Assembly: GCA_038231135.1 (NCBI GenBank)
Contig: JBBRLX010000026.1
Location: 1 to 64,000, forward strand
Direction of reading: 5' to 3'
Length of the DNA: 64,000 nt
Origin: Candidatus Eiseniibacteriota bacterium
Lineage (GTDB): Bacteria; Eisenbacteria; RBG-16-71-46
Shown: one piece after another, positions 19,613 through 41,141 of the stretch
How positions within the stretch are numbered: the stretch's first letter is position 1
Layout of the letters: every line of letters begins with the position of its first letter
Translations under genes and position numbers: made by a program
Notes under the pieces: model-generated
Told to the model about the DNA's origin: nothing
Database searches by the model: none
The model's input: the letters and a program-made list of their open reading frames with translations, nothing else

Positions 19613-20794
19613 TCAGTTGGGTGGCGTGAACACGAATGGCACCTGGAACGTCGTCACCCCGGCCGGGATCGCGGGGAATTTCCAGTCGCGGATCTGGGAC
19701 AGTGCGCACGCGGTGAGCGCGGCCGAACCCAGCGTGTTCTGGACCACGGCGGCCTGCAGCACCTCGCCCGACGCGGCGATGGTGAGCGCAACGACGAGCT
19801 TGCCCTTGAGGCCCTCGTGGCGCTTGAGCTCGTTGCCGTAGCAGAACTGGATGCCGGCCGCGTATTTCTGCACGACCGCCATCAGTGAGGCGTTGCTGCG
19901 GTAAACGCCGGGTCCGGCGCCGCCGCCGCCGCCACCGCCGCCACCGCCGCCCGATCCTGTGCCGCCGCCACTGCCGCCGCCCGTGCCGGTGCCGTCGCCG
20001 GTGCCGCCGCCCCAGCCCGCGCCGGTGCCGCCGTCACCACCGCCCGCGCCGGTGCCGGGACCCGTGCCGGATCCGCTGCCGGTGCCGCGTCCGCCGCCGC
20101 CGGCTCCAACCGACGACAGCGTTCCGATCGAGACCAGCGATCCCTGCACGGCGGAGCCGCCGACATCGGTGGCGCCCGCGCTGCCGGCGTAGGCGCTCTG
20201 CACCGACGCGAGCTGGGCATCGCTGCGGCCGCCGGCGACGACCCGCGACGCGCGTGGCGCGCCGGGCGTCGCGGCGCTCGACGACACGGCCTGCAGGGAC
20301 GACGACAGGCCCGCGAGCGACTGCGACAACGCCGCGGTGGCGCCCGACAGGCTCGCCGCGACTTCGGCCGCGCGCTGCCGGCCGGCACTGCCCGCGGGCG
20401 CGCCGGTGACGGGGCCCGGGTTGCCGCCCGTGGGTCGGGCGTCGGCGACGCGTTCACCCGAAGCTCCGCCGCGTCCGCCGGTGCCGCCACGCGGTCCGGG
20501 AGGCGCCTGGGGCGTGTCGCCCGGGCCCACGGTGCCGGGCGCCGCGTCGGGAACCGGCGCGACCATGGCCGGTGGTGGCGGCGGTTCGTCGCCGGTGACG
20601 AGCCGCGCCATGCGCACCGGCTCCGGCGTCAGCGACTCGATGGCCTGTTGCGCGGTGGGAGTGAGGAACACCACGAGCAGGAAGACCACGCCGGCCACCG
20701 CGGCTCCGGCGAGACAGCGCGAGAACAGATCGTCTCCGCGCCCGAGCGCGGGACGGTAGGCATGGGACGCGACGCCGGTCATGGTCGCCATCAC
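19613..20794 (-). CDS. TonB-like energy transducer with AgmX/PglI C-terminal domain (GltG-like)
   Basis: Single N-terminal TM, Pro- then Gly-rich linker, C-terminal IQFCYGNELKRHEGLKGKLVVALTIAASGEV...CALSQIRDWKFP...VPFVF. Confidence 0.88.
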   Translation of the reverse strand: MMATMTGVASHAYRPALGRGDDLFSRCLAGAAVAGVVFLLVVFLTPTAQQAIESLTPEPVRMARLVTGDEPPPPPAMVAPVPDAAPGTVGPGDTPQAPPGPRGGTGGRGGASGERVADARPTGGNPGPVTGAPAGSAGRQRAAEVAASLSGATAALSQSLAGLSSSLQAVSSSAATPGAPRASRVVAGGRSDAQLASVQSAYAGSAGATDVGGSAVQGSLVSIGTLSSVGAGGGGRGTGSGSGTGPGTGAGGGDGGTGAGWGGGTGDGTGTGGGSGGGTGSGGGGGGGGGGGAGPGVYRSNASLMAVVQKYAAGIQFCYGNELKRHEGLKGKLVVALTIAASGEVLQAAVVQNTLGSAALTACALSQIRDWKFPAIPAGVTTFQVPFVFTPPN

Positions 20795-21270
20795 TGGGTG
20801 TTCCTGAGCACGGCCAGCGAGACGTTCGCGAAGCCGTTGCTGCCGAGCGTGATCATCACCTTGCGCAGCACGCGATACTCCATGTTGCGGTCGCCCTGGA
20901 TCGTCACCAGCGGATCGGCGCCGGCCGCGCCCGACTCGGCGCGCAGTGCCTGCAACCGCGCGGTCAGCCCGGAGATCTCCGGGCTGTCGTCGCGCATCGC
21001 GTCGGCCACGCTCGCCACCGGCTGCTTGTCGACGCAGATCGATCCGGAGTCGATCGCGACGATCATCGAGGCGTGCGGCGCCTGCTGGGCGGTCGACGTG
21101 GGCAGCTTCACGCCGGGGGCGGGCACCATGACCTCGCCCTCGGCGACGTGGCTCTTGAGCAGGAACAGCAGCAGCACGGTGAGAATGTCCATCATCGAGA
21201 TCAGGTTCACGTTGGAGCTGCCGCGCAGGCTCTTCCGGAGGCGCAGTTTGCGTTTCTCACGATGCTTCAT
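20791..21270 (-). CDS. ExbD/TolR family protein (conserved TM Asp present)
   Basis: NLISMMDILTVLLLFLL TM; VTIQGDRNMEYRVLRKVMITL periplasmic motif. Confidence 0.92.
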   Translation of the reverse strand: MKHREKRKLRLRKSLRGSSNVNLISMMDILTVLLLFLLKSHVAEGEVMVPAPGVKLPTSTAQQAPHASMIVAIDSGSICVDKQPVASVADAMRDDSPEISGLTARLQALRAESGAAGADPLVTIQGDRNMEYRVLRKVMITLGSNGFANVSLAVLRNTQ

Positions 21271-21271
21271 G

Positions 21272-21775
21272 TCACGATGCTCCCTGGGCCGCGTCGGCGA
21301 GCGCCGCGTCCGGCAGGCCGGCGCTCCGCGACACGTCCATCACGTCGATGATGTCCTCGTAACGCGCGGCGCCGCCGGCCTCGATGCGGACCGTCGTCGT
21401 GCCGGGATGCCCGGCCGCGATCCCGGCGAGCAGTTCGCCGAGCTGCCGCCGCGCGGCCGCCGCGGGGGCCGCATCGCGGTCGCCTGCCGCCGGGCGCGCC
21501 ACCGTGCCCGCGACGCTGCCGTTCGCGCGCACTTCATAGGCATCGGTGCGGATCACGATCGCCACGGCCAGCGGCACATCGCCGGGCGCCGCGGCCACGG
21601 TGGCCGCGCCCGGCGCCCCGGGCAGCGACGCCGGGATCACGGCGAGCTGGACGAACGCCGCCGACAGCAGCAGCAGCGGGATGATCGAGATGAACACGTT
21701 GAGCATCGGCATCAGCTCGAGTTCCTGGTTCACGTCGGTCTTGCCGGCCCGGCGCTTCTGGAAACGCCCCTTCAT
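21272..21775 (-). CDS. ExbD/TolR family protein (TM Asp replaced by Asn)
   Basis: ELMPMLNVFISIIPLLL TM; RYEDIIDVMDVSR motif. Confidence 0.9.
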   Translation of the reverse strand: MKGRFQKRRAGKTDVNQELELMPMLNVFISIIPLLLLSAAFVQLAVIPASLPGAPGAATVAAAPGDVPLAVAIVIRTDAYEVRANGSVAGTVARPAAGDRDAAPAAAARRQLGELLAGIAAGHPGTTTVRIEAGGAARYEDIIDVMDVSRSAGLPDAALADAAQGAS

Positions 21776-21776
21776 A

Positions 21777-22505
21777 TCAGCGTCCCCCGAAGCCGCTCGC
21801 GGCCTGCGGCGTCACGGGCTGGCTCGCCGCCTGCGGCGGCACGCGCGGCATCGCCGCCACACCGGGCTGCGCATGGCCCAGCGCCTTCGCCATCGCCTTG
21901 CTCAGCCGGATCGACAGCTCGTCGATCTGCTCCGCGATGCCGTCCACGCGGCCGGCGAACCACCCCTGCAGCAGCAGGGTGGGAATCGCCACCGTGAGGC
22001 CGAACGCGGTGGTATGGAGCGCCTCCGAGATGCCGGCCGACAGATGCGCGGAGCGCTGCGCCGCGTCGGCGACGCCAACGCCCGAGATCGCGGTGATGAG
22101 GCCGGTGATCGTGCCCAGCAGCCCGATCAGCGTGGCGGAGTTCGCGAGCATGCCGAGGTAGGACAGCCGCCGGGTGAGACTGGGCAGCGCGATCGTCGCC
22201 GCGTCGTCGGCGGCGGACTGCAGCACCTCCTCGCTCGCGGGGCCCGCTGCCAGCATCTCCTGCGCCACCTGGGCGAGCGGGGTGTTCGAGCGCATCGCAA
22301 TCTGGCGCGCGCCGTTCAGGTCGCCGCGCGCGACCGTGCGCACGAGCTCCTCGGTGAGCTTGTGGCCATCGACGGCCGCGGCGCGGCCGATCACGATCAT
22401 CCGTTCTACGATGATCGCGATGATCACGATGCCGAGCACCAGCACGGCGTGCATGAATATGCCGCCCTGCTTGTAGAACGTGGCGACGGCGGACAGTGCG
22501 TTCAT
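21777..22505 (-). CDS. MotA/TolQ/ExbB proton channel family protein (AglR-like)
   Basis: GGIFM, IIVER, ATLIGLLGTITGLI and SAGISEALHTTAFGLTVAIP motifs. Confidence 0.93.
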   Translation of the reverse strand: MNALSAVATFYKQGGIFMHAVLVLGIVIIAIIVERMIVIGRAAAVDGHKLTEELVRTVARGDLNGARQIAMRSNTPLAQVAQEMLAAGPASEEVLQSAADDAATIALPSLTRRLSYLGMLANSATLIGLLGTITGLITAISGVGVADAAQRSAHLSAGISEALHTTAFGLTVAIPTLLLQGWFAGRVDGIAEQIDELSIRLSKAMAKALGHAQPGVAAMPRVPPQAASQPVTPQAASGFGGR

Positions 22506-22945
22506 CGGGAAGTCTCCTTTGGGGAATCCATGGGCGGGGTGTGAATCACGGCGACCCAGGTGGGAAACGGCGTGGTTTCGCCGAGCTGTGTGGTGGTCTT
22601 CAGGTAGCGGTAATGCTGAAAGTCCATGAAGCGCCGCTGATCGCGCGCGGTGATGAACAGCACCTGCGGCACCGGAGTCTCGCCTTCGATGTGGATGTCG
22701 CCGAGCGTGCGTGGCATGGCGCCGGCGTGCGTTGCCGGCCGGTCGGTTGCCGCCGCGTGTCCGGGGGAGCGTGAGGTCGGGGGCCCGGCCGTGGCGGCGT
22801 GCCGGGCGCCGGCGCGCGTTCCTGCGCGCGCGCGGAGGCTGTCCGTCCGCGCGTGCACGCGGACATCGGCCGTCCCCGCGTGTGCGGGTAGGGCGGTGGC
22901 CAACAGCAGTGCGGCCAGGATTCCGAGCGTACGCGTCATGGTCAT
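22502..22945 (-). CDS. Small exported protein, GltF/CglF-like
   Basis: Signal peptide; C-terminal LGDIHIEGETPVPQVLFITAR resembles the IEG...P motif of GltF-like proteins; located directly upstream of exbB. Confidence 0.6.
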   Translation of the reverse strand: MTMTRTLGILAALLLATALPAHAGTADVRVHARTDSLRARAGTRAGARHAATAGPPTSRSPGHAAATDRPATHAGAMPRTLGDIHIEGETPVPQVLFITARDQRRFMDFQHYRYLKTTTQLGETTPFPTWVAVIHTPPMDSPKETSR

Positions 22946-23901
22946 TTTCCCTTCGCCAGGTCGGTGTTATCGGCGGCCGGCAGCACGCCCGCCAGCCCAT
23001 CCGGGTCGGCCTTCGCGCGGGCCCGGTACTCGGTGAACCAGCGCGCCGCGGCCTCGTCGTCGAGCGTGTAGTACTTCTCGAGGATCGCGAGGTTGTAATA
23101 CGGGCCGGGCAGTGACGGATCGAGCTGGATCGCCTCCAGCAGCGCGCGGCGCGCCGCCTTGGGATCCCCCGCGCGCAGCCGCGCGACGCCGTAGTTGTTG
23201 CGGCACGCGGCGCTGTTCGGATGCGCGCGCATGGCGGCCTCCGCGAGATCCGCCGCGGTGTCGGGGGCGCCGCCGTGCAGCGCCACCACCACCGCCGCGA
23301 CGTCGGCGCCGGGGCGCGACATCCGCGGCGCCGCGGCCAGCACGTCGCGCGCCTTCGCGTGCTGCCCGATCGCGTCGTAGTGCAGCGCGAGTCCGGCGAG
23401 CAACTCGGGGGCGAACGCCTGCGAGCCCTGCTGTGCCGTAGCGCGCGCGGATTCCAGCAGGCGGATCGCCTCGTCGTGGCGCCCTGCCGCGAATTCCAGC
23501 CGCGACAGCAGCGCCAGCGCAGGCGCGTAGCTGCTGTCGCAGGCGAGCGAGCGGCGCAGTGCGTCCTCCGCCTGCGGCACCGAATCGGCCGACGCGTAGA
23601 GTGCGGCGAGCCGGTAGGGCCAATAGGGCTCCGCGGGATGCGCGCCGGCGAGTTCGCGCGCGTCCTCGATCCGGCCCGCGGATGAATGCGGGCTGGCGTG
23701 GCTGCGCAGGCCGGGCAGGGCGAGCCCGCCGCGCAGACCGGGCAGACTCGCGCCGCAGCCGCACACGGCGAGCGTGGCGAGCAGCAGAACGGTGAGCGCC
23801 GGTCCAGCTCCGCGCGATCGCAGTGCGCGAGCGGCCCGCACCCGCAGCCAGCGTCCCGGATGTTGTGCGGGAACGGGAATACCGGGTCGTGGGTTCGTCA
23901 T
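22942..23901 (-). CDS. TPR-repeat lipoprotein (GltE-like)
   Basis: Lipobox-like LAVCGC; TPRs (NNYGVARLRAG, AIQLDP...YYNLAIL). Confidence 0.8.
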   Translation of the reverse strand: MTNPRPGIPVPAQHPGRWLRVRAARALRSRGAGPALTVLLLATLAVCGCGASLPGLRGGLALPGLRSHASPHSSAGRIEDARELAGAHPAEPYWPYRLAALYASADSVPQAEDALRRSLACDSSYAPALALLSRLEFAAGRHDEAIRLLESARATAQQGSQAFAPELLAGLALHYDAIGQHAKARDVLAAAPRMSRPGADVAAVVVALHGGAPDTAADLAEAAMRAHPNSAACRNNYGVARLRAGDPKAARRALLEAIQLDPSLPGPYYNLAILEKYYTLDDEAAARWFTEYRARAKADPDGLAGVLPAADNTDLAKGK

Positions 23902-26900
23902 CTTCGTCCTCCGTCTCCGTCCTTGCGGTCCGGGTCTTCGGGGTGCGGTTTGCGTTTCTGCGCGTCCGCGGGCGGCGCGCCGATCACGAGCGGCACCTCG
24001 GCCTCGGTCACGTTCTCGAACCGGCCGCCGATGCGCTTCCACAGCGACTCCTGCGCCAGCCGGATCCACGGATCGTCGGGCGCCTCCGCCTGCTTCTGAC
24101 GCAGCAGGTCCGTCCATACGCCTTCGCCGCGCTCGAAGAACGGCCGCGCCTGCTGCGCGATCACGTCATCGTAGGCGGCGAGATCGGCGGCGCCGAGGCC
24201 GGCGGGCCGCTCGCTGTGGAGCAGCTCGTCGCCGAACGCGAGCAGCGTCTGGCCGATGCGAAAAGTCGACGCGTGCGCCCACTCGGAATCGCCGAAGTCG
24301 ACGCTCTCGCGATAGCGCTGCAGCGTGGCGTCCAGCAGCTTCTGGGCCACCGGAATCGTCTGCGTGAGCGGCTGGCGCAGCGGCGCGTTGCGGAGCGCGG
24401 CACCCGCCTCCTCGCCCTGGAGGTAGCGGACCTGCGCGAGTAATTCGTGGGACGCGAGCTGCGGATGCGCGGCGGCGCGGGCGAGGTAGTCGGCCACGCG
24501 CGACGGCGGCGGCGCGGACGCCGGAGCGCGCGCCGGAGCGCCGCGCCTGGCACCGGCGTGTCGCGCGGGCGCAGCGGACGGCGCCGCGGCCGGCAGCAGC
24601 GACGAGATCGGGTGGCCGGCGTCGATCGCGGCGAGCTCGCGGCGCGCCATGTCGGCGAGCAGTTCCATGGAACCCGCGACGTCCTCCGGATGGCGTTGCA
24701 TGTATCCGAACCGCAGCGTGTCCGCGCGATCGAACTTGCCGTCCTGCGCGAAACGGTCGGCCGCCCGCAGCAGCGCGCCACCCGACTGCGGATCCGCGGG
24801 GAACCGGTTCGCGAACTCGGCATACGCCTGCGCGGCCTGCGAACGATCGCCCAGCGAATCGGCGATCGTCGCCATTTCGAGCTGCGCGTCGCGTACCAGA
24901 TCGCTGTGCGGGAAGTCGGCGACGAGCGCCTGCATCTGGCGCAGCGCCACCCGCGGCAGCCCGGCGGCCAGGCTCGCGAGGCCGCTGCGGTACCGCGCGA
25001 GATCGGCGTGCTCGAACCCGGGCCAGTTCGCCGCGACCCTCTCGAACAGCGCGGCATGGTTCGCGTGCGCCGAGGAGTCCGCCGCCACCGCGGCTTCGGC
25101 CACGCGGTAATAGCTCACCGGGATCGCCTGTGCGGCGCGCTGCGCCAGCGAATCGTCGCCGGCGCGCCGCGCGGCCGCCAGCGCCTGCTGGTACGCGGCG
25201 CCGGCGTCCTCGTAGCGCGCGAGCCGGAACAGCGCGTCGGCGCGCAGGCTGGCCGCCAGCGGGGCGCGGCGGTCGTCGGGCCGCTCGGTCGCGAGCCGGC
25301 CGAAGTCGTGCGCGGCCCGCTCGTGCCAGCCGTGCGCGAACGCGAGGTTGCCCTGCCGCCACATGAGATCCGCGGCCTGCGGATGACCGGGTCTGCGGCT
25401 CAGCAGCGTATCGGCGGCGGCGATCACCGCGAGTGCCAGCGAATCGGCGCCGAGGCCGGCCGAGGTGAGGGCGGCGGTCTGCGCCGCCCCGCCGCGGCGC
25501 GTCCGGGGCACGGACACCGTGGCAGCCGCGGACCCGCCCACCGCGCCGTCCGCGGCGCGCGCCGGCGTCTGCGTGCTGCGATACCACGCGTCGGTCACCG
25601 ACACCCGCTGCCACAGCGCCTGCGTGACGACGCTGTCGCGGCCGATGCGCGCCGCGGCGCCGTAGTGCGCGAGTGACCGCGAGTACTCGGCGAGCTGGAC
25701 GGCGACCTCGCCGGCGTCGAGCTCGATGCCGGCCGTGGCGTCGCCGTCCGGCCAGTGCGCGATCACCACCTCGTAGAGCCGCAGTGCCTCGGCGTAATCG
25801 GCTCGCGACCCGGTGGCGCGTCCGGCGCGATGGTGCTGCTGCGCCACCGTGGTCCATGCGTCGCGCGCAAACGCGGCGCCCGCCGCGCGCACGGAATCCG
25901 AGCTCTGCGCCGCGTACCACGCGCTGCCGGGCACGAACACCGGCGCGTACTCGAGCCGCGCCGAGCACTCGAGCGCCGGTCGCTCCCAGCGGTGGAAGCT
26001 GTCGATCATGCGTCCCGCGCTCAGCAGCGCTTCAGGGTCGAGCGGATGCCGCACGATCAGCAGCCGGTCGGCGGCGATCGCGTCGGCATACAGGCTGTAA
26101 CGGCGGAAGTGCTGTGCGAGCTCGCGCAGCAGCCGGATCTCGTACGGACGCGGGCCGACGCGATCGAAGTAGCCCGCGAACGCCGTGGCGCCGCCGGCGC
26201 GCGCGATCGTCTGCACGAAGTACGCATCGGCTTCGTCGGCCAGGTTCACGCGCGCGTCAACCCGGCCCCCCGCGGCGTAGAGATCGAGGATCGAACGGAA
26301 CGCATCGGCCGCGTCGAGGAACCGGTCGAGGCTGAATTCGGCCCAGCCGAGCTTGTAGAGCGCGATCGCCCGTAGCGTCGTGTCGGCGCCGCCGGCGGCG
26401 TTCTGGTAGGGCGGAATGCAATCGGCGTAATTGCGATCGGTGAACGCGAGATCGCCGATGCGCACCCAGGCCTCCTGGCAATACCGCGAGCCGGGATGGG
26501 CGGTCACGAGCTGCTGGAACATCGGGAGCGCGCCGGGATCCGCGGCGTCCGCCATGATGGAGCCGGCGTTGAACAGCACGGCGTCCACGTGCGCGAATCC
26601 CGCGTCCTCGCGCAGGATCGTGCGGTAGATCGCGAGCGCGGGCGCGGCGTCGAGCACCGGGAGCGCCAAATTCGCGCCGCCCAGCTTCACGAATACCGCC
26701 ATCCGGTCATGGAACGTCTGGCGCGCGTCGAGCATCTCGAGGTCGGCGAGGCGGCACCGCAGCTCGCCGCGCGCGAACGACTGCGGATGGCGGTCGAGGA
26801 ACGCCCGCAGCTCGGGCACCGCGACGCCACGCCAGTGGCGCGCTTTGGGATCGTCGCGCGCCGGGTCGGTGGTGTCGGCGACCGCCGCCGCGGCGATGGC

Positions 26901-31514: not shown

Positions 31515-31543
31515 CGTGACGTCCCTTTCATCGTGAAGACGAC

Positions 31544-32227: not shown

Positions 32228-32808
32228 GGCGCCACCGCGCCCGACACCAGCAGTTCCATGCCCACCGGCAGCACTTCGCGCTGCGACGACACGAACGGGG
32301 TGATCAGGATCGAATCGGCGCCGCTGTCCTGCTCGATGCGCTGGCCGCTGCCGAGGTAGCACACCAGGAAAAGCCGCGAGCCGCTCGCGGGCGTGGTCGC
32401 GGTGAACGTGAAGTCGACGGGCTGGATCAGGTGGTCCCAGCCGGTGACCGCGCGTGTCGCGCGCCCGAGCGAGCGTGAGTGCAGCAGCAGGTCGTCGATG
32501 CTCGTCGCCATCGGCACCCGCGGCGCGTCGGGGGCGATGCCGAGTGCCGCGGTCCCGAGCGAATCGCTGGCGCGCAGTTCGGCCACCGCGTAGCCGGTGA
32601 GCAGCGCGCGCCACGTGACGGTCGCGTGCAGCGTGATCGGCTGCGCGGCGCCCGCGGGCACGACCTGCTGCGGCGCGACGCTGGCGCTGACGACGTCGAC
32701 GCGTGTCCAGCGATCCTCGATCTTCGGCTTGTCGAGACAGCCGCCGAGCGTGACGGCGCCCATGAGCAGCAGCACGACGGGGGTGGCCTGCACGAACCGC
32801 CGTGTCAC
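32224..32808 (-). CDS. Hypothetical lipoprotein
   Basis: Lipobox LGGC; GTGA coupling on both sides. Confidence 0.75.
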   Translation of the reverse strand: MTRRFVQATPVVLLLMGAVTLGGCLDKPKIEDRWTRVDVVSASVAPQQVVPAGAAQPITLHATVTWRALLTGYAVAELRASDSLGTAALGIAPDAPRVPMATSIDDLLLHSRSLGRATRAVTGWDHLIQPVDFTFTATTPASGSRLFLVCYLGSGQRIEQDSGADSILITPFVSSQREVLPVGMELLVSGAVAP

Positions 32809-34448
32809 CGGACCAGCACCAGTCGCCGCGACCGCTCGGCGGCGCCGGCCGCGAGCCGCACGAAGTACACGCCGGGCGCGAGGCGCGTGCCGCCGTCGCC
32901 CGCGCCATCCCACACCACCTCGTTGCGCCCCGCGGCGAACGCGCCGGCGAAGTGCCGCACGGCGCGGCCGGCCGGGTCGTACAGCGCGAGCCGGGTGTTC
33001 GCGCCGCCCGACGCCGGCAGCACGAACGCGATGCGCGTCGAGCCGACGACCGGGTTCGGCGTGTTGCCGAGCAGCATCGCGACCGCCGGCAGCGTCGCCG
33101 CGCCGCCGTTGACGCGGAACCCGGTGGTGGCGGTGGCGCCCGTGCCGCCGGAATACGCCGACGCCGCGACGATGCGCAGCACGACGTCCCCGGTGCCCAC
33201 TGCGGCCAGGTCGCCGTCGCTGAGCGGCAGCGTGTGGATGCCGGCCTCGAGCATGCCCGCATCGTGACGCACGAGCGTGCGGCCCGAACCGGCGTCCGCC
33301 AGCTCGAGCGTCACCTGACCGCGATCGGTGAGCGTGAACCGCGCGGCGGGGGAGCGGTCCTGCACGACCGCCAGCTCCGCGACGTCGAGGCCCAGGCTCC
33401 ACAGCCGCATGCCGGTGGCGTCGGACCACTGCTCGACGGACACCGCGTTCGGCCGGCCCTCGCGCGTGACCGTGTTGCTGCGATGGTCGCGCACCGTGAA
33501 GAACGGGACCCGGAAGCTGCGCGGGCGCGCGAGGCCAGAGTGCAGATCCGCGAGCGGGACCATGTCGGCCGCGAACTTCCGCACGAGCCCCTGGTTCGGC
33601 GCCGCCGCGTACAGGTTGCCCCACGCGTCGGCGTCGAGCGACGTCACGACGTCCACGTCGCTCGGCGCGTCGGCGATCCACGCCAGCGCGCCGCCCTCGT
33701 AACGCAGGTGGACGATCCGGCGGGTGTGCGCGTCGGCGACGAACACGTCGGGCGTGCAGGCGCCGCCGGCGCGGCCCACGGTGAGCGCCAGCGGCCCCGC
33801 GAACCGGCCCGGCCCGTTGCCGAGGCCGCCGATCGCCGCGGCGAGCCGCGGCCCCGCGGGCTCGAGCGCGTACGCGAGCACTCGGTTCGTGCCGGTGTCG
33901 GCGACATACAGCCGGTCGTCGCCGGTCACGAACGGCGTGCCGCCGTCGGACCAGCTGACATCGTAGGGGCGGCTCATCCCCCGGATCTCGTACTGCGGGA
34001 CCAGCGTCATGTCGCCGAATTCGCTCGAGGCCAGGAACACGAGCACGCGATCGTTGCCGGTATCGGCGACGTACACGTGATTCGAGGCGTCCACGGCGAG
34101 CCCGTGCGGGTCGTTGAGCGCGCCCAGCGGCTGGTTCCTGCCGTCGTAGGCGTCGAGCGAGCGCCCGAGCTCGCCGAACACCAGCCGGTTCCAGCGCGGG
34201 TCCGACACCACCTGGAACGTCCGCGTCTCGACGTACGGGAACACGTCGTACACGTCGACCGAGCCGAGCGTCACCGTGGCATAGGGGTTCGCGAACAGCT
34301 CGCGGCCCACCTGCCGGCGCGCGGCATCACGGGTCAGCGCATCCAGCCCCTGGTCGGGCGCGATGCGGGCCGGCGAGAACGTCGCCGCCGTCGCGGACGA
34401 TGCGAGGGCCACACCGATCAGGAACCACATCATCACGAGTCTTCGCAC
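32805..34448 (-). CDS. NHL-repeat secreted protein with C-terminal FlgD-Ig-like domain
   Basis: LNDPHGLAVD...VYVADTGNDRV NHL repeats; C-terminal PNP...ALYDPAGR...WDG...PGVYFVRL. Confidence 0.85.
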   Translation of the reverse strand: MRRLVMMWFLIGVALASSATAATFSPARIAPDQGLDALTRDAARRQVGRELFANPYATVTLGSVDVYDVFPYVETRTFQVVSDPRWNRLVFGELGRSLDAYDGRNQPLGALNDPHGLAVDASNHVYVADTGNDRVLVFLASSEFGDMTLVPQYEIRGMSRPYDVSWSDGGTPFVTGDDRLYVADTGTNRVLAYALEPAGPRLAAAIGGLGNGPGRFAGPLALTVGRAGGACTPDVFVADAHTRRIVHLRYEGGALAWIADAPSDVDVVTSLDADAWGNLYAAAPNQGLVRKFAADMVPLADLHSGLARPRSFRVPFFTVRDHRSNTVTREGRPNAVSVEQWSDATGMRLWSLGLDVAELAVVQDRSPAARFTLTDRGQVTLELADAGSGRTLVRHDAGMLEAGIHTLPLSDGDLAAVGTGDVVLRIVAASAYSGGTGATATTGFRVNGGAATLPAVAMLLGNTPNPVVGSTRIAFVLPASGGANTRLALYDPAGRAVRHFAGAFAAGRNEVVWDGAGDGGTRLAPGVYFVRLAAGAAERSRRLVLVR

Positions 34449-34480
34449 GCTCAGCTCCCCTGTCCTGCCACCCTTGGGCA

Positions 34481-35665
34481 CTAGAACCGGTAGACGACGC
34501 CGGATTCCAGGATGTCCGCCGAGTAGTTGTTGCTGTTGAAGTACCGCTCGTAGTCGAGCGTCAGGTCGAACTGCCGCACCAGCGGCGTCCGGGCCGCGAG
34601 CACTCCCAGATCGAAATCCAGCGTCACGCCGAACAGATGCGAGGCCAGCGGGCCGAGCCGGTAGTCGCCGGTGAGATAGCCGTCGACGCCGTTCGTCGAG
34701 TCGTATTCCGGCCGGTAGAACCGCGCCGCGGTCTGCGTGTAATAGCGGTACTCGTACTGGGCGAACATTCCGTGCGTGAGGTACTGGCTCAGGCGGCTGC
34801 TCGCCTCGTGCGACAGGATTCCCCAGTCGTCGGTGTAGAACCGGTAGTCGAACTTGAGGCTCGAGCGGTTCGGCAGGTACTGGTTGAACTTCACGAACGC
34901 GTCGCTGCGGGACCGGCTGCGCGGATGGCGTTCGGGCACGCTGGTGCCGCCGGCGTACACGCGGCGATAGGGGTTGTGCTGGAGGCCGTCGACGAGGTTC
35001 TCCTCGACGCCGAATCGCACCATCGACGTCGACGACAGGATCTGCGTGGCGACCGCGTTCCAATGGAGCGTCGTCTTGTGATCCGCGCCGGTGCTGGTGT
35101 TGTCGTTCGACTTAGGGTCGATGCGGTCCCAGCCGTAGCTGGTGCCGACGGCCAGGTTGAGCTGGCGGTTGCGCAGGTCGCGGTTGTAGGAGCCGCCGAT
35201 CTGGCGCGCGAGGTAGTCGCTCTCGATCGAGTGGTAGTAGTCGAGCTCGGCGCTGCCGTGCGTGACCTGGCCCTGCAGCTCGTTGCGGAGCTTGGAGAAG
35301 TCCTGGTACGCGTTGCCGCGGATCGGCCGGCTCGCCGTGGTGATCGCGTCGACCGCCTCGGGGCTGCCGGCCGGCGCCGAGATGCCGGGCACGGTCACGC
35401 GCTCGTTGTTGTAGTGCAGCGTGAGCCCGTAGTCCGGGCCGAGCGGCACCGACACGTCCTGGATCAGCGAGCGCACCAGCACGTGCTTCGAGTCCGCGAA
35501 GTAGCGCAGCAACCCGTTCGCCGTCTGCGGATCGTCGGCGTCCGCGGCGGCGCCCGCCCGGGCGCACGCGAGGCTCAGCGCCAGCACGAGCAGCCCGGCG
35601 CTGCAGCCGGGCCGGCGGCCGTTCCGCGGCCGGCACGGCATAGGCGCGGTCATGCGCGGCGTCAC
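34481..35665 (-). CDS. DUF3570 domain-containing outer-membrane beta-barrel protein
   Basis: VDAITTAS, ESDY, NPYR, ERHP.SR, YRFYTDDWGI and YRYYTQTAA.FY motifs; terminal YRF. Confidence 0.88.
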   Translation of the reverse strand: MTPRMTAPMPCRPRNGRRPGCSAGLLVLALSLACARAGAAADADDPQTANGLLRYFADSKHVLVRSLIQDVSVPLGPDYGLTLHYNNERVTVPGISAPAGSPEAVDAITTASRPIRGNAYQDFSKLRNELQGQVTHGSAELDYYHSIESDYLARQIGGSYNRDLRNRQLNLAVGTSYGWDRIDPKSNDNTSTGADHKTTLHWNAVATQILSSTSMVRFGVEENLVDGLQHNPYRRVYAGGTSVPERHPRSRSRSDAFVKFNQYLPNRSSLKFDYRFYTDDWGILSHEASSRLSQYLTHGMFAQYEYRYYTQTAARFYRPEYDSTNGVDGYLTGDYRLGPLASHLFGVTLDFDLGVLAARTPLVRQFDLTLDYERYFNSNNYSADILESGVVYRF

Positions 35666-35940
35666 TTGCACGCGCAGCCTCCGCCTTCGCCGCCGTCGCC
35701 GCCGGTCGAGCCTTCGCGCGCCTCGAACGCCTTGGTGCGGCGCGCGTCCTTCTTCGCCTCCGTCTTGAACGACATGATCGGGTCGGCGAGGTGCTCGCGC
35801 TGATAGACCTGCACGTTCCGGGCGGCGCAACCGGCCGTGGTCGCGAGCATCGCGGCGAGCGCGGCGCACGCCAGCAGGCGGCGCGCCACGGCTCGTGCCC
35901 TGCGGGCTCCGCGCGGCAGGTTCCGGATGCCCGGGGTCAC
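35662..35940 (-). CDS. DUF4266 domain-containing lipoprotein
   Basis: Lipobox TAGC; YQREHLADPIM...REGSTGG...GGGCAC signature. Confidence 0.88.
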   Translation of the reverse strand: MTPGIRNLPRGARRARAVARRLLACAALAAMLATTAGCAARNVQVYQREHLADPIMSFKTEAKKDARRTKAFEAREGSTGGDGGEGGGCACK

Positions 35941-36584
35941 CGCGAGCCTCCGGTGGATGCGTTCATCATCGGCGGGGGAGCGGCGAGCAGGGTCCGCACC
36001 TCGGACGCCAGGCCGGCGAGCGCCCGGTCGTCGGAACCGGTCGTGGTCCAGGCGATGTGCCCCGTGCGATCGAGCACCAGGGTCAGCGGCACGCTGCCGA
36101 GGTCGAGCGCGCGCGCGAGGCCGTCCGGCCCGTCCTGCGCGACCGCCAGCGTCACGCGATGGGCGCCGCAGAACCGGCGCGCGTTCGCGGCCTCCTCGTC
36201 GATCGACACCGCGATCACCCGGGCGCCGCCGCCGAGCTGCGCTTCGAGCGCGCCCAGCCGCGGCAGCTCGCGGCGGCACGGCGCGCACCAGCTCGCCCAG
36301 AAGTTCACGACGACGACGCTGCCCGCGAGCGAACCCAGCGTGAGCGTGCGCCCGTCGAGCGTGTGCAGGGGATGATCGCGCAGCGCGCGCTCGGCGACGG
36401 CCGTGCCGGCGCCGAGGCCCGCGAACGCGACCGGAGCCGCGTACGCGGCCGCCGGGGCGAGCAGCACCGCAGCGAGCGCCGCAATGGCTGCGGTCGCACG
36501 CATCGCGCCGTCGCGCGCTCCTTCGAGGCGGTGCGGCCCACCGGATCCGGCGGTACGCAATGCAGTCCCATGGACGAGGTTCAT
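35937..36584 (-). CDS. TlpA family disulfide reductase (exported thioredoxin-like)
   Basis: VVVNFWASWCAPCRRELP motif. Confidence 0.9.
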   Translation of the reverse strand: MNLVHGTALRTAGSGGPHRLEGARDGAMRATAAIAALAAVLLAPAAAYAAPVAFAGLGAGTAVAERALRDHPLHTLDGRTLTLGSLAGSVVVVNFWASWCAPCRRELPRLGALEAQLGGGARVIAVSIDEEAANARRFCGAHRVTLAVAQDGPDGLARALDLGSVPLTLVLDRTGHIAWTTTGSDDRALAGLASEVRTLLAAPPPMMNASTGGSR

Positions 36585-36597: not shown

Positions 36598-38571
36598 TCA
36601 CTTGTACTGGGCGCCGAGCAGCACCCAGAGGTTGAACTTCCGTTGTTCCTGGGCGGTGAGCGAGTCGGGGCCCGCGGGATGCGAGCCCAGGCCGGCGTGC
36701 GTGCCGAGGCCCATCACGTAGTCGACCAGCACGGAGCGCCGCGGGAACGGCGGGACCGTTACGGTCGGGCCGTGCGCGGTCATCATCGTGGCGCCCGACA
36801 GGTTCACGTAGGCGCGCGGGAAGATCCGGTTGCCGCGGACCGTGTCTGCGGCGGCGCTCAGGTCTAGGTTCCCGGCGGCGGCGGTGGTGTCGATGCCGGC
36901 GATCACCGGCGTGTGACAGCTCGCGCACTTGGCGGTGACGATCGGGCCGATGTCGTTCTGGTAGTTGATGATCATCCAGTTGGCCTTCGGCACGTTCACG
37001 TCGTAGGGCGCGTGCGCCGCCGCCATCGGGTTCAGGTTCGTCGGCACCGGGCCACCCGCGACGCGGTCCTCGTGGCAGCCGATGCAGCGCGCGAACTCCT
37101 CGCCGGGGCGCACGGCCAGATGCGTGCGCTTCACCACGAAGCCGCGGCCGTGGCTGTCGAGCGTGGCGAAACTGATCGGCGTGTCGGCCGGCACCTTGAT
37201 GCGGAACGAGCCGTCGGCTTCGACCGGCGCGAACCCGATCAGTGCGCGCTTCTCGAACTCGTTCGCCGAGAAGTCGTTCATCTCGCCGGGGCGCGTCGGG
37301 CGCGCCGCGATCACCGCGATGCTGTCGATGCGGTCGACGCCGCGCACCGGCACCTCCTGCCCGTCGCCGTGCCCGCGGTTGAACACGTCCTGGGCGAGGA
37401 ACACGCCGTAGTCCTTGGTGCGATCCACCACCGACGGGATCACCGGCGGCTTGGGATGCGGCGCGAGCAACTGGGCGTCGTACTCCTGGGTGTGGGGATC
37501 GTTGTAGAGGAACGACAGGTTATGGACGCTGAACGTCGCCGGGTCGCCGGAGGCGCCGGTGCCGGACTGGTCCAGCGTGAACGTGTAGAGGCCGTAGTCG
37601 ACGTCCTGATCGGTCGCGGCGGGCAGCGAGTACGAGGCGACGAACTTGTTGCCACCGAGCGGCCGCGGGTACTTGAACGCGCCATAGGGCCACGGCTTGC
37701 CGTCGGTGTTCACCTGGGGCGTGAGCACGTCCCAGTGCGTCGAGGTGCCGTCGGTCGCGGGGTCAGCCGGGCCCTGTTCCAGCTTGAGCATCGCGAGCGG
37801 GCCCGCGTCGCCCTCCACCTCGGTCGACTGGATCGCGATGATCCGGCCGTCCGGGGTGGGGACCGCGTGGAAGAAGTTCTGATCGTGCGGCCCGAAGAAG
37901 TGGAACGTGCCGGTGCCGTCGGGGTTCGTGAAGAACAGTGGGAACCGGTTGAAGTCGCCGAAGTGCTCCCAGCGCGTGTAGACGATGCGGCCGTCGGCCA
38001 GCAGCTCGGGATCGAAGTCGTCGCTCTGGTTGAAGCTGATGCGCTCGAGGTTGCCGCCGTCGGCGTCGCACACGTACAGGTGCTCGGCCGGCGCGTGGTT
38101 GTACTCGTCCATCTCGTTGTCGCGCGAGCTGGTGAACAGGATGCGCCCGTCGGGCAGGTACAGCGGGTCGAAGTCGTTGCCGCCGCCGCTCGTCACCTGC
38201 CGGAGCCCGGTGCCGTCGGCGCCGATCTCGTACAGGTTGTGGTAGGCGCCGCCCGCCGGCCGCATCGAGAACAGGATCTTCCTGCCGTCGAACGACACCG
38301 CGGGGTCCGACACCGCGGCGCCGGTAAAGTTCGTGATCGGCGTCACCACACCGTCGGGCGCGATTGGCGACAGCTTGCACAGGTTCGCCGGCGCCTCGGT
38401 GCGGTTGAGCGTTTCGGTCGCCGTGGACTTGACGAACACCAGCGCGTCGGTCGTCGCCTCCTGCTGGATCAGGTCTTCAGGCGCGCTGCCGCGGCAGCCG
38501 GCGAGCCCGCCGAGCCACAGCAGGACGGCCGGCGTGAGGAGTGCTGCACGATGAACGGGGAGTCGGAGCAT
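36598..38571 (-). CDS. HzsA-related lipoprotein: PD40/TolB-like propeller, hydrazine-synthase-alpha middle domain and two c-type heme motifs
   Basis: Lipobox LAGC; DPAVSFDG..ILFS and DGRIVYTRWEH; APVEADGSF..KVPADTP...RPGE..CIGCHE (37072-37086); second CASCH (36913-36927). Confidence 0.85.
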   Translation of the reverse strand: MLRLPVHRAALLTPAVLLWLGGLAGCRGSAPEDLIQQEATTDALVFVKSTATETLNRTEAPANLCKLSPIAPDGVVTPITNFTGAAVSDPAVSFDGRKILFSMRPAGGAYHNLYEIGADGTGLRQVTSGGGNDFDPLYLPDGRILFTSSRDNEMDEYNHAPAEHLYVCDADGGNLERISFNQSDDFDPELLADGRIVYTRWEHFGDFNRFPLFFTNPDGTGTFHFFGPHDQNFFHAVPTPDGRIIAIQSTEVEGDAGPLAMLKLEQGPADPATDGTSTHWDVLTPQVNTDGKPWPYGAFKYPRPLGGNKFVASYSLPAATDQDVDYGLYTFTLDQSGTGASGDPATFSVHNLSFLYNDPHTQEYDAQLLAPHPKPPVIPSVVDRTKDYGVFLAQDVFNRGHGDGQEVPVRGVDRIDSIAVIAARPTRPGEMNDFSANEFEKRALIGFAPVEADGSFRIKVPADTPISFATLDSHGRGFVVKRTHLAVRPGEEFARCIGCHEDRVAGGPVPTNLNPMAAAHAPYDVNVPKANWMIINYQNDIGPIVTAKCASCHTPVIAGIDTTAAAGNLDLSAAADTVRGNRIFPRAYVNLSGATMMTAHGPTVTVPPFPRRSVLVDYVMGLGTHAGLGSHPAGPDSLTAQEQRKFNLWVLLGAQYK

Positions 38572-38589: not shown

Positions 38590-39264
38590 TTACGGCGCGA
38601 GCGTCCGGTAGAAGGCCAGGGCGATCGTCGCCTCGCGGTATTCGTATGCGACGGTTCCCTGGCGGTACTGCTGCCTGCCGATCACGGTCATGCCGAGCAG
38701 CTCGGCGCGCAGCGCGAGATCCCGGCGGATGAAACATTCGAGGCCGCCGCCGAGGGTGAGGGCGTTCTTCGTCACGGGGTCGGCGTTGAGCGAGCGCCCC
38801 GGCAGCACGATGGTCATGCCGTAGCCGGCCGACGCGTAGGGCTGGAACCGGCCGGCGAGCGGCCGGCGCACGATCGCGCTGAACCGGTGCAGGATGCCCT
38901 GCACGGAATGGCTGGGGTTGTGTCCGATCGAGGCCTCGTAGCCGAGCCACGCGTTCGGGTTGTAGGCCGCGCGCAGCACGAACAGCCGCTGCGAGCCGAG
39001 CAGCCCGAACCCCGGACTGATCGACAGCCGGTTCAGGTAGGGCCGCACTCCGGGCTCGAGCGCGTACGGGTTCGCGGCCAGCTCGGGCACCAGGTGTTCG
39101 AGCCCGTCGGCCGCGATGACCGGCGTGTCGGCCGCGGTGGTGCCCGTGGCGACCGATGTGCCGGTCGCGGCATCGTGCTCCGGAGCCACGTCCGCCCGCG
39201 CGGCCATGGCTCCGAGCGTCAGGCAGCAGACGGCGGCACCGAGCGCCGTGCGCGTTGCGGTCAT
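38590..39264 (-). CDS. Outer-membrane beta-barrel protein
   Basis: Signal peptide; FQPYASAGYG, LGGGLE and ALRAE strands. Confidence 0.8.
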   Translation of the reverse strand: MTATRTALGAAVCCLTLGAMAARADVAPEHDAATGTSVATGTTAADTPVIAADGLEHLVPELAANPYALEPGVRPYLNRLSISPGFGLLGSQRLFVLRAAYNPNAWLGYEASIGHNPSHSVQGILHRFSAIVRRPLAGRFQPYASAGYGMTIVLPGRSLNADPVTKNALTLGGGLECFIRRDLALRAELLGMTVIGRQQYRQGTVAYEYREATIALAFYRTLAP

Positions 39265-39752
39265 CGCAGCACCCCGTGCAGGATCCAGCCGCGGATCGCC
39301 TGGTATCCCGAGTCCGCGGGGGTCGCGAACACCTTCACGCCGTGCGGAACGCCGCCGGCGGCGAGCGCCAGCGGCTTGGTGAGGATGTGGCTCGAATCGA
39401 GCTGCGTGGGGTTGACCTGCAGCGCAGCCTGATCGAAGTCGAAGCGCAGGTCCTTGGCGCCCGCGGGGGACAGCGCGAACGTGCCGCGGATGCCGCCGCC
39501 GTGGCAGTCGCCCCCCGCGTCGCAGCCATTCCGCACCAGCACCGGCTCCACGGCCGCGACGAATTCGTCGTAGTCGAGCGTCAGCATGTGGCCGCCGGAC
39601 GGAGGGGCGGGAGGCCGGGTCGGACTCTGGCAGCCGGGCACCGCCGTAGCGGACACGAGCAGCAGCGCGAGTGCCGTCGCACGTGCCACAACCCGACCCG
39701 ATCCGATTCGAAGTTCATTCGCCACGAGGCTCCCCGGGATTGCAGTTCGCAT
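39261..39752 (-). CDS. Lipoprotein with atypical CX5CH heme motif (planctomycete cytochrome c-like)
   Basis: Lipobox VPGC; VEPVLVRNGCDAGGDCHGG...SHILTKPL..PHG...YQAIRGWI; alternative GTG start at 39725 with GGGGAG RBS. Confidence 0.72.
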   Translation of the reverse strand: MRTAIPGSLVANELRIGSGRVVARATALALLLVSATAVPGCQSPTRPPAPPSGGHMLTLDYDEFVAAVEPVLVRNGCDAGGDCHGGGIRGTFALSPAGAKDLRFDFDQAALQVNPTQLDSSHILTKPLALAAGGVPHGVKVFATPADSGYQAIRGWILHGVLR

Positions 39753-39882
39753 TTCCAGCCATTGCGAATCGAACGGAGAGCACTTTCGGGCGAAACCCGA
39801 ACGAATCTCTTCAACTGGTTCGAATTGCTGCGGCTAGGCGGTGTTCATGATCCCGTCCTCTGGGAAGATGGGCGGCCCAAGC

Positions 39883-39897
39883 GCAAGCACCGTGCCC
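39883..39897 (-). promoter_or_regulatory. sigma54 (RpoN) -24/-12 promoter of the large operon
   Basis: Minus strand GGGCACGGTGCTTGC matches TGGCACG-N4-TTGC; intergenic and oriented toward 39752. Confidence 0.75.
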
Positions 39898-40004
39898 TCG
39901 CGTGCAGAGGCTGGGGGGATTCGCTCAGCCGCTGCGATCCGCCCGCGGTGAATCACCCCAGGCGGGTGTCGGCCGTGCGGTGCGCACTTGCCATGAACTT
40001 CCGC

Positions 40005-41141
40005 TCAGAAGTAGACGACCTCGAATAGCGAGCGGGCGGCGGGCTCGAGCAGGAACCGGCCTTCGAGCGACGATTCGACCCACACCGTGTCCGTGCCGGC
40101 GCGACCCGGCGTCACGAGCACGGCCTGGATGTCGTCGCGCTCCTTCGCCTTCGCGCGCGCCGCGGCGGCGCCGAGCACGAACAGTGGCGTGTCCCAGCTG
40201 TCGGCGACGAATGCGCTGCGGGTGACGAGCGTCACCGCCAGCAGGCCCTCCGACGGGCGGCCGGTGCGCGGGTCCATGATGTGCCCGTAGGTGCGACCGT
40301 TGGCGGCGACGAACTGCTGGTACTTGCCCGACGTCGAGATGCCCTCGCCGCGCAGCAGGATGTGCGCGAAGTACGGCATGCGGTCGCGCGGATCGCGGAT
40401 GCCGATGCGCCAGCCGTCCGACGTTGGCGAGTGTCCGAGCGCCATCATGTTGCCGGTCAGGTCGACGAGCGCGTTCGTGACGCCGTGCGCCGCCAGCGAT
40501 TCGGCCGCGACGTCGACCGCGTAACCCTTGGCGATGCCGCCGAGATCGATGCGGACGCCGGGATTGTCGTAGGCCAGCGTGCCCGCCACGACGTCGAAGC
40601 GGAGCTGCCGGGCGCCGACCCGGCGGAACGCCGCGGTCGCCGCGGAATCGGTCGGCACGTGCGGAGTCCCGCCGATGAATCCCCACGCGCGCACCAGCGG
40701 CTCGACTGTGATGTCGAACGTGCCCGCGCTGCCGCGCCACACGTCGAGCGCCGCGGCGATCACCCGCGCCACCTCCGGCTGCACGTGCACCGGGCCCGCC
40801 GCGCACTCGCGATTGAGCCGGGCCACCTCGCTGGTCGTGGTCCAGTTGCTCATCAGCGAGTCGACACGCGCGAGCACGTTCTGCGCGATCCGCGCCGCGG
40901 GTTCCACCCGCGCCGAGTCGGCGGTGACGATCGTGATGTTCGCGTACGTGCCCATCGTGCGCATCGAGAACGTGACCGCGCGCTCCGGCGAAGCCGGAGC
41001 GGCGGCCGCCGCGTCGTTGCCTGGAACCGTCGGGGTCAGGCCGGCGATCATGGTGGCAAGCGCAACCAGCGTGGCTGCAACGATTCGCGGCGCTCGCCTG
41101 CCATGACGCTCGAAGTCCAATGGAACGCCCTCCCTGGGCAC
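40005..41141 (-). CDS. apbE: FAD:protein FMN transferase (ApbE)
   Basis: TMGT, SEVARLN, FDITVEPL..WGF, IDLGGIAKGYAVD, STSG.Y and HIMDPRTG motifs; start uncertain. Confidence 0.93.
   Translation of the reverse strand: MPREGVPLDFERHGRRAPRIVAATLVALATMIAGLTPTVPGNDAAAAAPASPERAVTFSMRTMGTYANITIVTADSARVEPAARIAQNVLARVDSLMSNWTTTSEVARLNRECAAGPVHVQPEVARVIAAALDVWRGSAGTFDITVEPLVRAWGFIGGTPHVPTDSAATAAFRRVGARQLRFDVVAGTLAYDNPGVRIDLGGIAKGYAVDVAAESLAAHGVTNALVDLTGNMMALGHSPTSDGWRIGIRDPRDRMPYFAHILLRGEGISTSGKYQQFVAANGRTYGHIMDPRTGRPSEGLLAVTLVTRSAFVADSWDTPLFVLGAAAARAKAKERDDIQAVLVTPGRAGTDTVWVESSLEGRFLLEPAARSLFEVVYF

Follow-up and report, generated by a model that had tools for sequence, protein, structure and literature searches.

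A core complex of the Agl-Glt machinery, from which the gliding and spore-coat machines of myxobacteria evolved and which is specified by gltC, gltD, gltE and gltG together with aglR, aglQ and aglS, is encoded in a single cluster in Gammaproteobacteria, where its function is stated to be unknown (PMC3169522; also a 2020 CglB preprint). Among flavinylation systems, DUF3570 has been shown experimentally to be a substrate of ApbE, which flavinylates it at two [S/T]GA[S/T] motifs (PMC8238504). Genes related to both systems are found side by side in a stretch of 64,000 nt from a Candidatus Eiseniibacteriota bacterium (contig JBBRLX010000026.1, positions 1 to 64,000; the whole stretch is referred to as the window). 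There, apbE and 19 further genes, g1 to g19, combine a motor of the ExbB/ExbD/TonB type with a flavin, thiol and haem redox module. The whole is best explained as one conserved envelope system of 20 genes, in which a motor energised by the proton motive force (PMF) acts on a redox module of the outer membrane (probability about 0.6). The protein families are known; their union, its breadth and a variant DUF3570 motif appear to be new. In the literature searched, neither a description of the motor-redox linkage nor a paper joining ApbE with ExbB, ExbD and TlpA was found, and the text of PMC8238504, its supplementary neighbour table aside, contains no mention of ExbB, TolQ or TPR.

The genes g1 to g19 form 19 open reading frames (ORFs) on the minus strand, running from 39752 to 19613, with apbE in front of them in the same orientation. 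As the G+C content of the region is 69-75%, reading frames can be discriminated by third-position G+C, which amounts to 0.82-0.95 in the frames of these genes. An earlier interpretation made from the letters alone, here called the sequence-only reading, is borne out in this respect, and the ten four-base overlaps it had listed are all present. With an additional one at 31544/31547, 11 of the 18 junctions from g1 to g19 are ATGA/GTGA overlaps, and the widest gap among the 18 is 18 nt over 20 kb. The spacing between apbE and g1 is 252 nt. It contains a sigma54-type -24/-12 element, GGGCACGGTGCTTGCG, which matches TGGCAC-N5-TTGCA at 9 of 11 positions and keeps the GG-N10-GC spacing. The upstream regions of g1 from the window and from 21 related loci were surveyed for such elements, and the expectation was derived from random pieces of the same length from the same loci. 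Scores of at least 8/11 were obtained in 21 of the 22 regions (2.6 expected) and scores of at least 9/11 in 16 (0.33 expected), in agreement with the sigma54 site and the upstream apbE gene of the sequence-only reading. An rpoN gene is present in the genome, and so are about 20 strong sigma54-activator genes; no activator gene was found on the contig of the window. Internal promoters or terminators splitting the cluster, which would have spoken for independently regulated parts, are not in excess: a simple scan revealed no sigma70-like site (0.5 expected), and two terminator-like hairpins were detected (4.0 expected), one within g8 and the other on the opposite strand. From these data, g1 to g19 are predicted to constitute an operon-like unit behind a sigma54-type promoter, with apbE outside the sigma54-driven unit. 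Since g19 is the sole protein of the genome above the cut-off of the AgmX/PglI model, the genome harbors only this one cluster of its kind.

Relatives were collected by two scans. The first, anchored on g10 with one genome per species, yielded 41 loci, 35 of which are true relatives; the titles of their metagenome-assembled genomes (MAGs) name Eisenbacteria, Krumholzibacteriota, Latescibacterota or Gemmatimonadales, apart from one labelled Limnocylindria. From the second, performed with a g3 alignment, the best 80 of 116 relatives were kept, all with at least 60% identity. In comparisons by tblastn with 22 proteins of the window, the 20 cluster genes were all recovered, with order and strand unchanged, as far as the DNA of a locus extends; every one of the 21 loci holding g1 is collinear. 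Where the DNA upstream of g10 spans at least 4.5 kb (27 loci), genes for TlpA and DUF3570 are always present. Where it spans at least 9 kb downstream of g10 (13 loci), the ExbB gene was found in 11, and all 45 loci that extend for at least 9.5 kb beyond g3 on the downstream side contain the genes for DUF3570, g10, g12 and g13. Genes of both halves were seen in 13 g10-anchored loci, and apbE is located directly upstream of g1 in 40 of the 55 related loci with room for it. In relatives, conservation does not extend to the coiled-coil and ABC-F genes that flank the cluster in the window, so that apbE and g19 mark the ends of the conserved block. DUF3570 of the cluster type was detected in 44 of 151 sampled genomes of the window's phylum, one match being in a genome flagged as unpublished. 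Among high-quality genomes of the phylum it was found in 33 of 118, and in the window's own family in 32 of 59. Such a patchy distribution fits an accessory function.

To look beyond these relatives, a scan with an ExbB alignment was performed on 4 of 64 parts of the collection and yielded at least 80 loci from many phyla. As tblastn alone missed most of the distant DUF3570 and DUF4266 genes, hidden Markov models (HMMs) built from the orthologue sets were run on six-frame ORFs, and 57 ORFs of four loci were checked with Pfam. Five loci showed full linkage on one strand, two from Nitrospirota (L142 and L158) and three from Gammaproteobacteria (L172 of Thioalkalivibrio sp. XN8, L186, and L209 of Rheinheimera pleomorphica PKS7). 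Their order starts with one or more barrels, including a protein with SH3 and OMP domains, followed by TlpA, DUF4266, DUF3570 and, in some, ApbE; it continues with a protein of about 170-215 aa, TPR proteins of about 620 and 947 aa and a TPR lipoprotein, and ends with a protein of about 100-126 aa, ExbB, two ExbDs and a TonB-like protein. ApbE directly follows DUF3570 in L142 and L158 and was not seen there in L172 and L186; in L209 it lies about 7 kb downstream on the opposite strand. In Thioalkalivibrio and Rheinheimera, the SH3 and OMP proteins sit at the place equivalent to g10. A gene for an HZS_alpha protein is located immediately upstream of the linked locus in four of the five genomes; the order HzsA-like, g1-like, SH3-barrel was confirmed in three, and in Rheinheimera the HzsA-like gene is directly upstream. 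Furthermore, g12 is homologous to the protein of about 170-215 aa preceding the TPR genes (hhalign 88.5%, E 2.7e-6, 100 columns). The place of the GltC-like and GltD-like TPR genes (620 and 947 aa) of other phyla is occupied by g13, in which these two large proteins appear to be fused. In total, about a dozen families are common to the Eisenbacteria-type clusters and those of Nitrospirota and Gammaproteobacteria. The NHL protein, g8, g9, g11, the apparent TPR fusion and the sigma54-type site are confined to the Eisenbacteria type; in the clusters of Nitrospirota and Gammaproteobacteria, no convincing element of this kind was detected in front of the HzsA-like gene.

Seven further loci have genes for ApbE and/or TlpA at the same place. 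A DUF3570 gene was detected in all five partial-locus genomes searched (L174, L195, L205, L207 and L208, not L178 and L183), the match of contig to locus being uncertain. Linkage of motor and redox genes is recurrent across distant lineages, though it was observed in 12 of 51 motor-anchored loci only. A quick tree of ExbB was calculated from 87 rows. The 12 rows from other phyla with redox linkage all group, along with 13 unlinked ones, in a single starred clade that comprises 38 rows of Gammaproteobacteria and Nitrospirota. Rows of the Eisenbacteria type are grouped apart from these, in another starred clade beside unlinked Gemmatimonadaceae. As the root is undefined and the deep branches are weak, the tree permits no choice between an ancient union followed by losses and repeated capture.

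Table 1. Genes and promoter element of the cluster in the window. Assignments were made with Pfam and NCBIfam models and PDB searches, for g6 and g12 also with AlphaFold2 (AF2) models and Foldseek.
Feature	Position	Strand	Assignment
apbE	40005-41141	-	FAD:protein FMN transferase, PF02424 1.6e-77
sigma54-type -24/-12 element	39897-39882	-	GGGCACGGTGCTTGCG (GGGCAC-N5-TTGC), 130 nt before the g1 ATG
g1	39261-39752	-	lipoprotein; F..V.P.L...GC-x4/5-CHGGG invariant; no Pfam match
g2	38590-39264	-	small outer-membrane beta-barrel; OMP_b-brl 2.9e-4, below cut-off; position conserved
g3	36598-38571	-	HzsA-like; TolB-type PD40 propeller, HZS_alpha middle domain (PF18582 3.6e-16), CxxCH at 496 and 549
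g4	35937-36584	-	TlpA/ResA-type periplasmic thiol:disulfide oxidoreductase, CAPC; Redoxin 3.5e-18; ResA and TlpA models
g5	35662-35940	-	DUF4266 lipoprotein, PF14086 1.6e-14; C-terminal REGSTGG.GG.GGGCAC invariant
g6	34481-35665	-	DUF3570 outer-membrane beta-barrel, PF12094 6.1e-38; variant motif D-A-I-T-T-A-S
g7	32805-34481	-	NHL six-blade propeller and C-terminal sorting domain of the type IX secretion system (T9SS); start at 34481 or 34433
g8	32224-32808	-	lipoprotein, lipobox LGGC; no family match; position conserved
g9	31544-32227	-	secreted (signal peptide), no family; possibly a small barrel
g10	30474-31547	-	SH3_3 1.5e-7 and OMP_myx_plus barrel, TIGR04565 63.8 (cut-off 60)
g11	29863-30459	-	secreted, no match to a family or in the PDB; restricted to the Eisenbacteria-type clade
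g12	29060-29875	-	secreted; long helix and beta-sandwich
g13	23898-29063	-	1721-aa secreted TPR protein; TPR_6; YbgF/CpoB-type (tol_pal_ybgF) 2.1e-20
g14	22942-23901	-	TPR lipoprotein; GltE-like by position; GltE model 19.5 (cut-off 225)
g15	22502-22945	-	small secreted protein, no family match; GltF-like on position and size alone; its place is taken in other phyla by small ORFs of 101-126 aa
g16	21777-22505	-	ExbB/TolQ/AglR-type proton channel, PF01618 5.4e-22
g17	21272-21775	-	ExbD/TolR-type, PF02472 1e-9
g18	20791-21270	-	ExbD/TolR-type, PF02472 9.3e-16
g19	19613-20794	-	TonB-like inner-membrane protein, GltG-like; NF033768 (AgmX/PglI C-terminal domain) 83.7 (cut-off 40); TonB_C 4.5e-6

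All four families of the flavinylation module, ApbE, TlpA, DUF4266 and DUF3570, are present according to Pfam, as the sequence-only reading had suggested; the TlpA, DUF4266 and DUF3570 genes are adjacent, and the arrangement is conserved in related loci. The flavinylation cluster described in PMC8238504 consists of the same families, likewise with a C-x-C in DUF4266, and DUF3570 is the likely ApbE substrate in the cluster studied here as well. The cluster studied here differs from it in the variant DUF3570 motif, in the lack of a DsbD gene nearby, and in being embedded among motor and TPR genes and those of two haem-type proteins. At the C-terminus of DUF4266, the C-x-C (C-A-C in a glycine-rich tail) is invariant in 19 of 19 rows. 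At the aligned site of DUF3570, D-A-I/L-T-[T/S/A]-A-S-R/H-P-I is found in each of the 28 rows. The copies from Nitrospirota and Gammaproteobacteria contain two tandem D-x-x-[S/T]-x-A-S motifs, and that of Rheinheimera has a canonical SGAS. In a review, the ApbE motif is given as D-x-x-[S/T]-G-A-[S/T], and a glycine-to-alanine change keeps about 50% of flavinylation (PMC12052999). ApbE is encoded by exactly two genes of the genome, and both have a DUF3570 module as neighbour. Because of this pairing, the invariance of the motif in 28 of 28 rows and the tolerated glycine-to-alanine change, g6 is predicted to be flavinylated on the last serine of D-A-I-T-T-A-S. The site represents a concrete prediction on how far the ApbE recognition motif can vary. 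The AF2 model of g6, with a predicted local distance difference test (pLDDT) value of 80, consists of about 16 long strands and is matched in Foldseek by outer-membrane barrels only. There, strands 3 and 4 are joined by a helix-loop of lower confidence that contains D-A-I-T-T-A-S. Two [S/T]GA[S/T] matches in g3, at positions 338 and 592, were considered as flavin sites and rejected as chance, as they are not conserved among 24 rows; g19 also matches the motif at position 150, in the single sequence of the window. In a few species, according to a preprint, genes for DUF4266, DUF3570 and TlpA adjoin those of proteins with the JDVT-CTERM sorting signal (10.1101/2023.06.07.544157).

The second part of the redox module comprises g1 and g3. 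Comparison of g3 with the alpha subunit of hydrazine synthase (PDB 5c2v chain A; 7.9e-16) revealed four collinear segments, within which both haem motifs lie; the two proteins have in common the propeller, the middle domain and, at homologous positions, a pair of c-type haem motifs. The propeller also matches TolB (TIGR02800 1e-14; TolB chains in the PDB). Mean column identity of g3 over 18 orthologues is 75%. On the other hand, g3 stays far under the cut-off of the hydrazine synthase alpha equivalog (NF052339, 74.7 versus 800), and no domain similar to the beta or gamma subunit was detected with Pfam and NCBIfam among the 20 cluster genes. For HzsA homologues outside anammox bacteria, no function is known according to PMC12758564. 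The g1 protein itself is a lipoprotein with a C-x5-CH motif. In an alignment of 22 rows of the g1 family, F..V.P.L...GC-x4/5-CH-GGG is invariant, and so is a histidine further on; distant relatives, encoded in the Nitrospirota and Thioalkalivibrio clusters, keep the same pattern. It resembles the segment preceding the second haem motif of g3 and HzsA, with a longer spacer, and g1 is predicted from this likeness to be a c-type haem protein with an expanded binding motif. Small lipoproteins in which C-x4/5-C-H replaces CxxCH are encoded beside HzsA-like genes in three phyla (window 39261-39752; L211 310-867; L212 964-1554; L213 10773-11267), and this lipoprotein family may represent an unrecognised expanded haem-binding motif. 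The g1-like protein of L211, from Thioalkalivibrio, ends in a cysteine-rich C-terminal tail.

In its motor part, the cluster shares with the Agl-Glt/Nfs core the order of TPR proteins, a small protein, a TolQ-like protein, two TolR-like proteins and a TonB-like protein with an AgmX/PglI domain. It differs by the upstream thiol-flavin-haem module and the HzsA-like protein, neither of which is mentioned in the excerpts of PMC3169522, by the sigma54-type promoter, and by the apparent presence of the GltC-like and GltD-like parts in one protein of 1721 aa. The Agl-Glt core named in the sequence-only reading is thus recovered in architecture and in the AgmX/PglI domain; no other Glt equivalog model was reached (GltG 45.1 versus 650, GltJ 34.6 versus 450, and GltE as listed in Table 1). 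Genes of gliding Group A (gltA, B, F, H, I, J and K) and the adhesin CglB gave no NCBIfam match at E <=10; only CglE, at 0.025, and the general OMP_myx_plus domain were matched. Two labels of that reading need qualification: PepSY-like for g11, whose feature score in a protein atlas is only 0.77 and represents a weak lead, and GltF-like for g15, which was derived from position and size. In the same atlas, g11 and g12 belong to hypothetical clusters only, and the profiles of g1, g11 and g12 gave no useful match to PDB sequences. The AF2 model of g12 (pLDDT 79) consists of a helix from 83 to 150 and a sandwich, for which Foldseek returned generic beta-sandwich matches, none with E <=0.001. With TonB-ExbB-ExbD and Tol-Pal, the cluster has in common a PMF stator of MotA_ExbB and ExbD proteins, a TonB_C-type transducer directed at outer-membrane proteins, a TolB-like propeller and a YbgF-like TPR protein. 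Unlike those systems, it encodes two ExbD paralogues and large TPR scaffolds, no Pal and no 22-strand receptor with a plug; the candidate outer-membrane partner is instead a barrel of about 16 strands with a predicted flavin.

The NHL protein with a secretion-type C-terminal domain that had been read from the sequence was confirmed in g7, which matches NHL (7.7e-12), FlgD_ig and, with a score of 24.6 against a cut-off of 23, TIGR04183, a type A sorting domain. The protein resembles the NHL structures of PknD and Pizza and is predicted to be a T9SS cargo. Its neighbour g9 is weakly conserved, with 6% of columns at >=95%.

The physical coupling, the flavinylation, the haem binding and the function of the cluster, as we infer them, could fit together as follows. 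Before insertion of the barrel, ApbE would attach flavin mononucleotide to the serine in the D-A-I-T-[T/S/A]-A-S loop of DUF3570. Electrons would pass from a single DsbD-type protein, encoded elsewhere, to TlpA, then to the C-x-C of DUF4266 and finally to the DUF3570 flavin, and the HzsA-like dihaem protein g3 together with the C-x5-CH protein g1 could provide a second, haem-based route. The stator of g16 to g18 would act with g19 to pull, via g13, g14 and g15 (and g12), on the barrels g2, g9, g10 and g6. In this way, a step at the outer membrane that depends on redox chemistry would be gated or driven by the motor. The NHL propeller g7, exported by the T9SS, would be the surface component in clusters of the Eisenbacteria type. 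Coupling of the motor to the barrels by the chain of TonB-like and TPR proteins is considered probable by analogy to the Agl-Glt model, in which an AglR5QS-type stator holds the transmembrane helix of GltG and GltC grips N-terminal strands of porins (PMC11761067). As to the purpose, the reductive capture and uptake of a metal in oxidised form, for example Fe(III), is a tentative and rather doubtful guess; it was made because flavinylation systems are associated with iron and 25 DUF3570 clusters contain a VIT1 transporter (PMC8238504). That the cluster as such represents one functional system is, however, very probable. A possible working analogy is the porin-cytochrome conduit of the MtrCAB type, in which an outer-membrane barrel with an inserted decahaem protein passes electrons across the membrane. 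We know of no sequence relation between MtrCAB and the cluster; MtrB was hit 45 of the g6 model in Foldseek. In contrast to MtrCAB, the cluster would use a flavin bound covalently in a loop, and a motor would be attached.

A number of observations weigh against a PMF motor acting on an outer-membrane redox module. Of the ExbB-anchored loci, 51 extend upstream for at least 9 kb; only 12 of these contain any gene of the redox module and only five contain TlpA, DUF4266 and DUF3570 together. The other 39 have no redox gene within 10 kb; loci of this kind occur in Myxococcota, Bdellovibrionota, Fibrobacterota, Gemmatimonadaceae and Nevskiaceae, among others. Five genomes with such a motor were searched for DUF3570, which was missing from two, was found in two others on a different contig or at a distance above 200 kb, and was ambiguous in one. 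The motor therefore works without the redox module in many lineages. The expectation of the sequence-only reading that both halves are linked in other genomes holds for all related loci reaching far enough and for the Nitrospirota and Gammaproteobacteria clusters; it does not hold for these 39, and the redox module is also found alone. The genome itself carries a second, stand-alone cluster of redoxin/TlpA, DUF4266, DUF3570 and ApbE genes on contig C27 at about 39900-42900 (locus L003, 9795-12865). The DUF3570 protein of this cluster reaches 273 bits in Pfam, compared to 125 for the copy in the window, and keeps the canonical TGAS. In the related loci, apbE is not directly upstream of g1 in 15 of 55, and in two of 13 (L012 15946-17105; L013 18221-19434) g15 is followed by the TonB-like gene without ExbB or ExbD and without a run of N in between. 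In g6 there is no [S/T]GA[S/T], and none is present at the aligned DUF3570 site in any of the 28 cluster-type rows, g6 and its orthologues; flavinylation of g6 is therefore not assured, and of the flavinylation-associated module proposed earlier the genes are present and the published motif is not. Finally, in a structural model of Glt the TonB-like domain of GltG binds GltD and GltF, not barrels (PMC11761067), and no transporter for a reduced metal is encoded in the cluster.

Several of these points would also suit two independent systems travelling together, a Glt-core or Tol-like motor and a self-contained ApbE-TlpA-DUF4266-DUF3570 module with added cytochromes, which would be neighbours by descent and shared regulation and lack physical coupling. 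The stand-alone redox module of the same genome, the hundreds of motor-less redox clusters described in PMC8238504, the 39 of 51 motor loci without a nearby redox gene and the two related loci without ExbB and ExbD are all compatible with this explanation. It is nevertheless rather improbable, as the pairing recurs in three distant lineages with a partly different gene order and separate starred ExbB clades, translational overlaps run through the junctions between the halves, and the genes in between, g10 and g12, are common to the distant clusters too.

The motor genes could alternatively specify a machine for surface transport or gliding, a true analogue of Agl-Glt/Nfs that moves or exposes the NHL propeller, with the thiol, flavin and haem proteins only maturing or regulating the cargo. 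The Glt-like order from the TPR proteins to the TonB-like protein with its AgmX/PglI domain, the OMP_myx_plus barrel g10 and the T9SS tail on g7 would agree with such a role, and the Agl motor is known to serve both motility and spore-coat assembly (PMC3169522, PMC3858216). However, equivalogs of GltA, B, H, I, J and K or of CglB are not matched, CglE is matched below threshold only, the cluster occurs in only 44 of 151 sampled genomes of the phylum, and the examined Nitrospirota and Gammaproteobacteria versions lack the NHL gene and contain the redox genes, which makes this explanation quite improbable. Very improbable appears a paralogue of Tol-Pal for envelope maintenance, combined with repair of oxidised envelope proteins, in which a TolB-like propeller, a YbgF-like TPR protein and TolQRA-like proteins would hold the outer membrane and TlpA, flavin and haems would supply reducing power. 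Although the g3 propeller matches TolB, g13 matches tol_pal_ybgF and the best score of g16 is to TolQ, all Tol equivalog scores are far under the cut-offs, Pfam revealed no Pal-like peptidoglycan-binding lipoprotein in the cluster, and sigma54 control and the patchy distribution fit an accessory function better than housekeeping.

If a single system of motor and redox module is assumed, the core complex behind myxobacterial gliding would be given a testable function, and a motor driving a redox step at the outer membrane would be a use of the PMF not described for Tol/TonB-type systems. One might go further and regard the ancestral Agl-Glt core complex, in its full form, as a proton-driven motor working an outer-membrane flavin-thiol-haem module, that is, a mechanically gated machine for redox reactions across the outer membrane or for reductive uptake; the myxobacterial gliding and spore-coat machines would then be derived forms minus the redox part. 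This extension is unlikely. Two carriers, Rheinheimera pleomorphica PKS7 and Thioalkalivibrio sp. XN8, are named as isolates, and genetics and biochemistry are therefore within reach.

Some additional genes were recognised in the course of these searches. In two MAGs titled Eisenbacteria (L133 and also L135), a paralogous cluster of a g11-like gene and genes for TPR, ExbB, ExbD and TonB-like proteins has no redox gene within 10 kb; ExbB of the L133-type cluster branches inside the Eisenbacteria-type clade. In L142 from Nitrospirota, a gene of the chlorite dismutase family (12752-13447; 4.6e-10) directly follows the TonB-like gene. A cytochrome b gene is located a few kb upstream of the stand-alone redox cluster on C27. 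In the window, an 889-aa coiled-coil protein with SpiroCoCo/SMC-like repeats is encoded just downstream of the cluster (16556-19225, minus strand). Three large secreted proteins were also detected: a BNR/sortilin-like protein with a weak Por_Secre_tail match below the cut-off (2543-5065, minus strand), a protein with TIG repeats, a CBM and a weak FlgD_ig match (49883-54775, plus strand), and a subtilase with FG-GAP repeats in which no tail was seen (56775-60620, plus strand). The weak tails of the first two suggest further T9SS cargo in the genome. Genes for a HipA-like kinase (HipA_2) and a DUF3037 protein adjoin each other at 12661-13903 on the minus strand.

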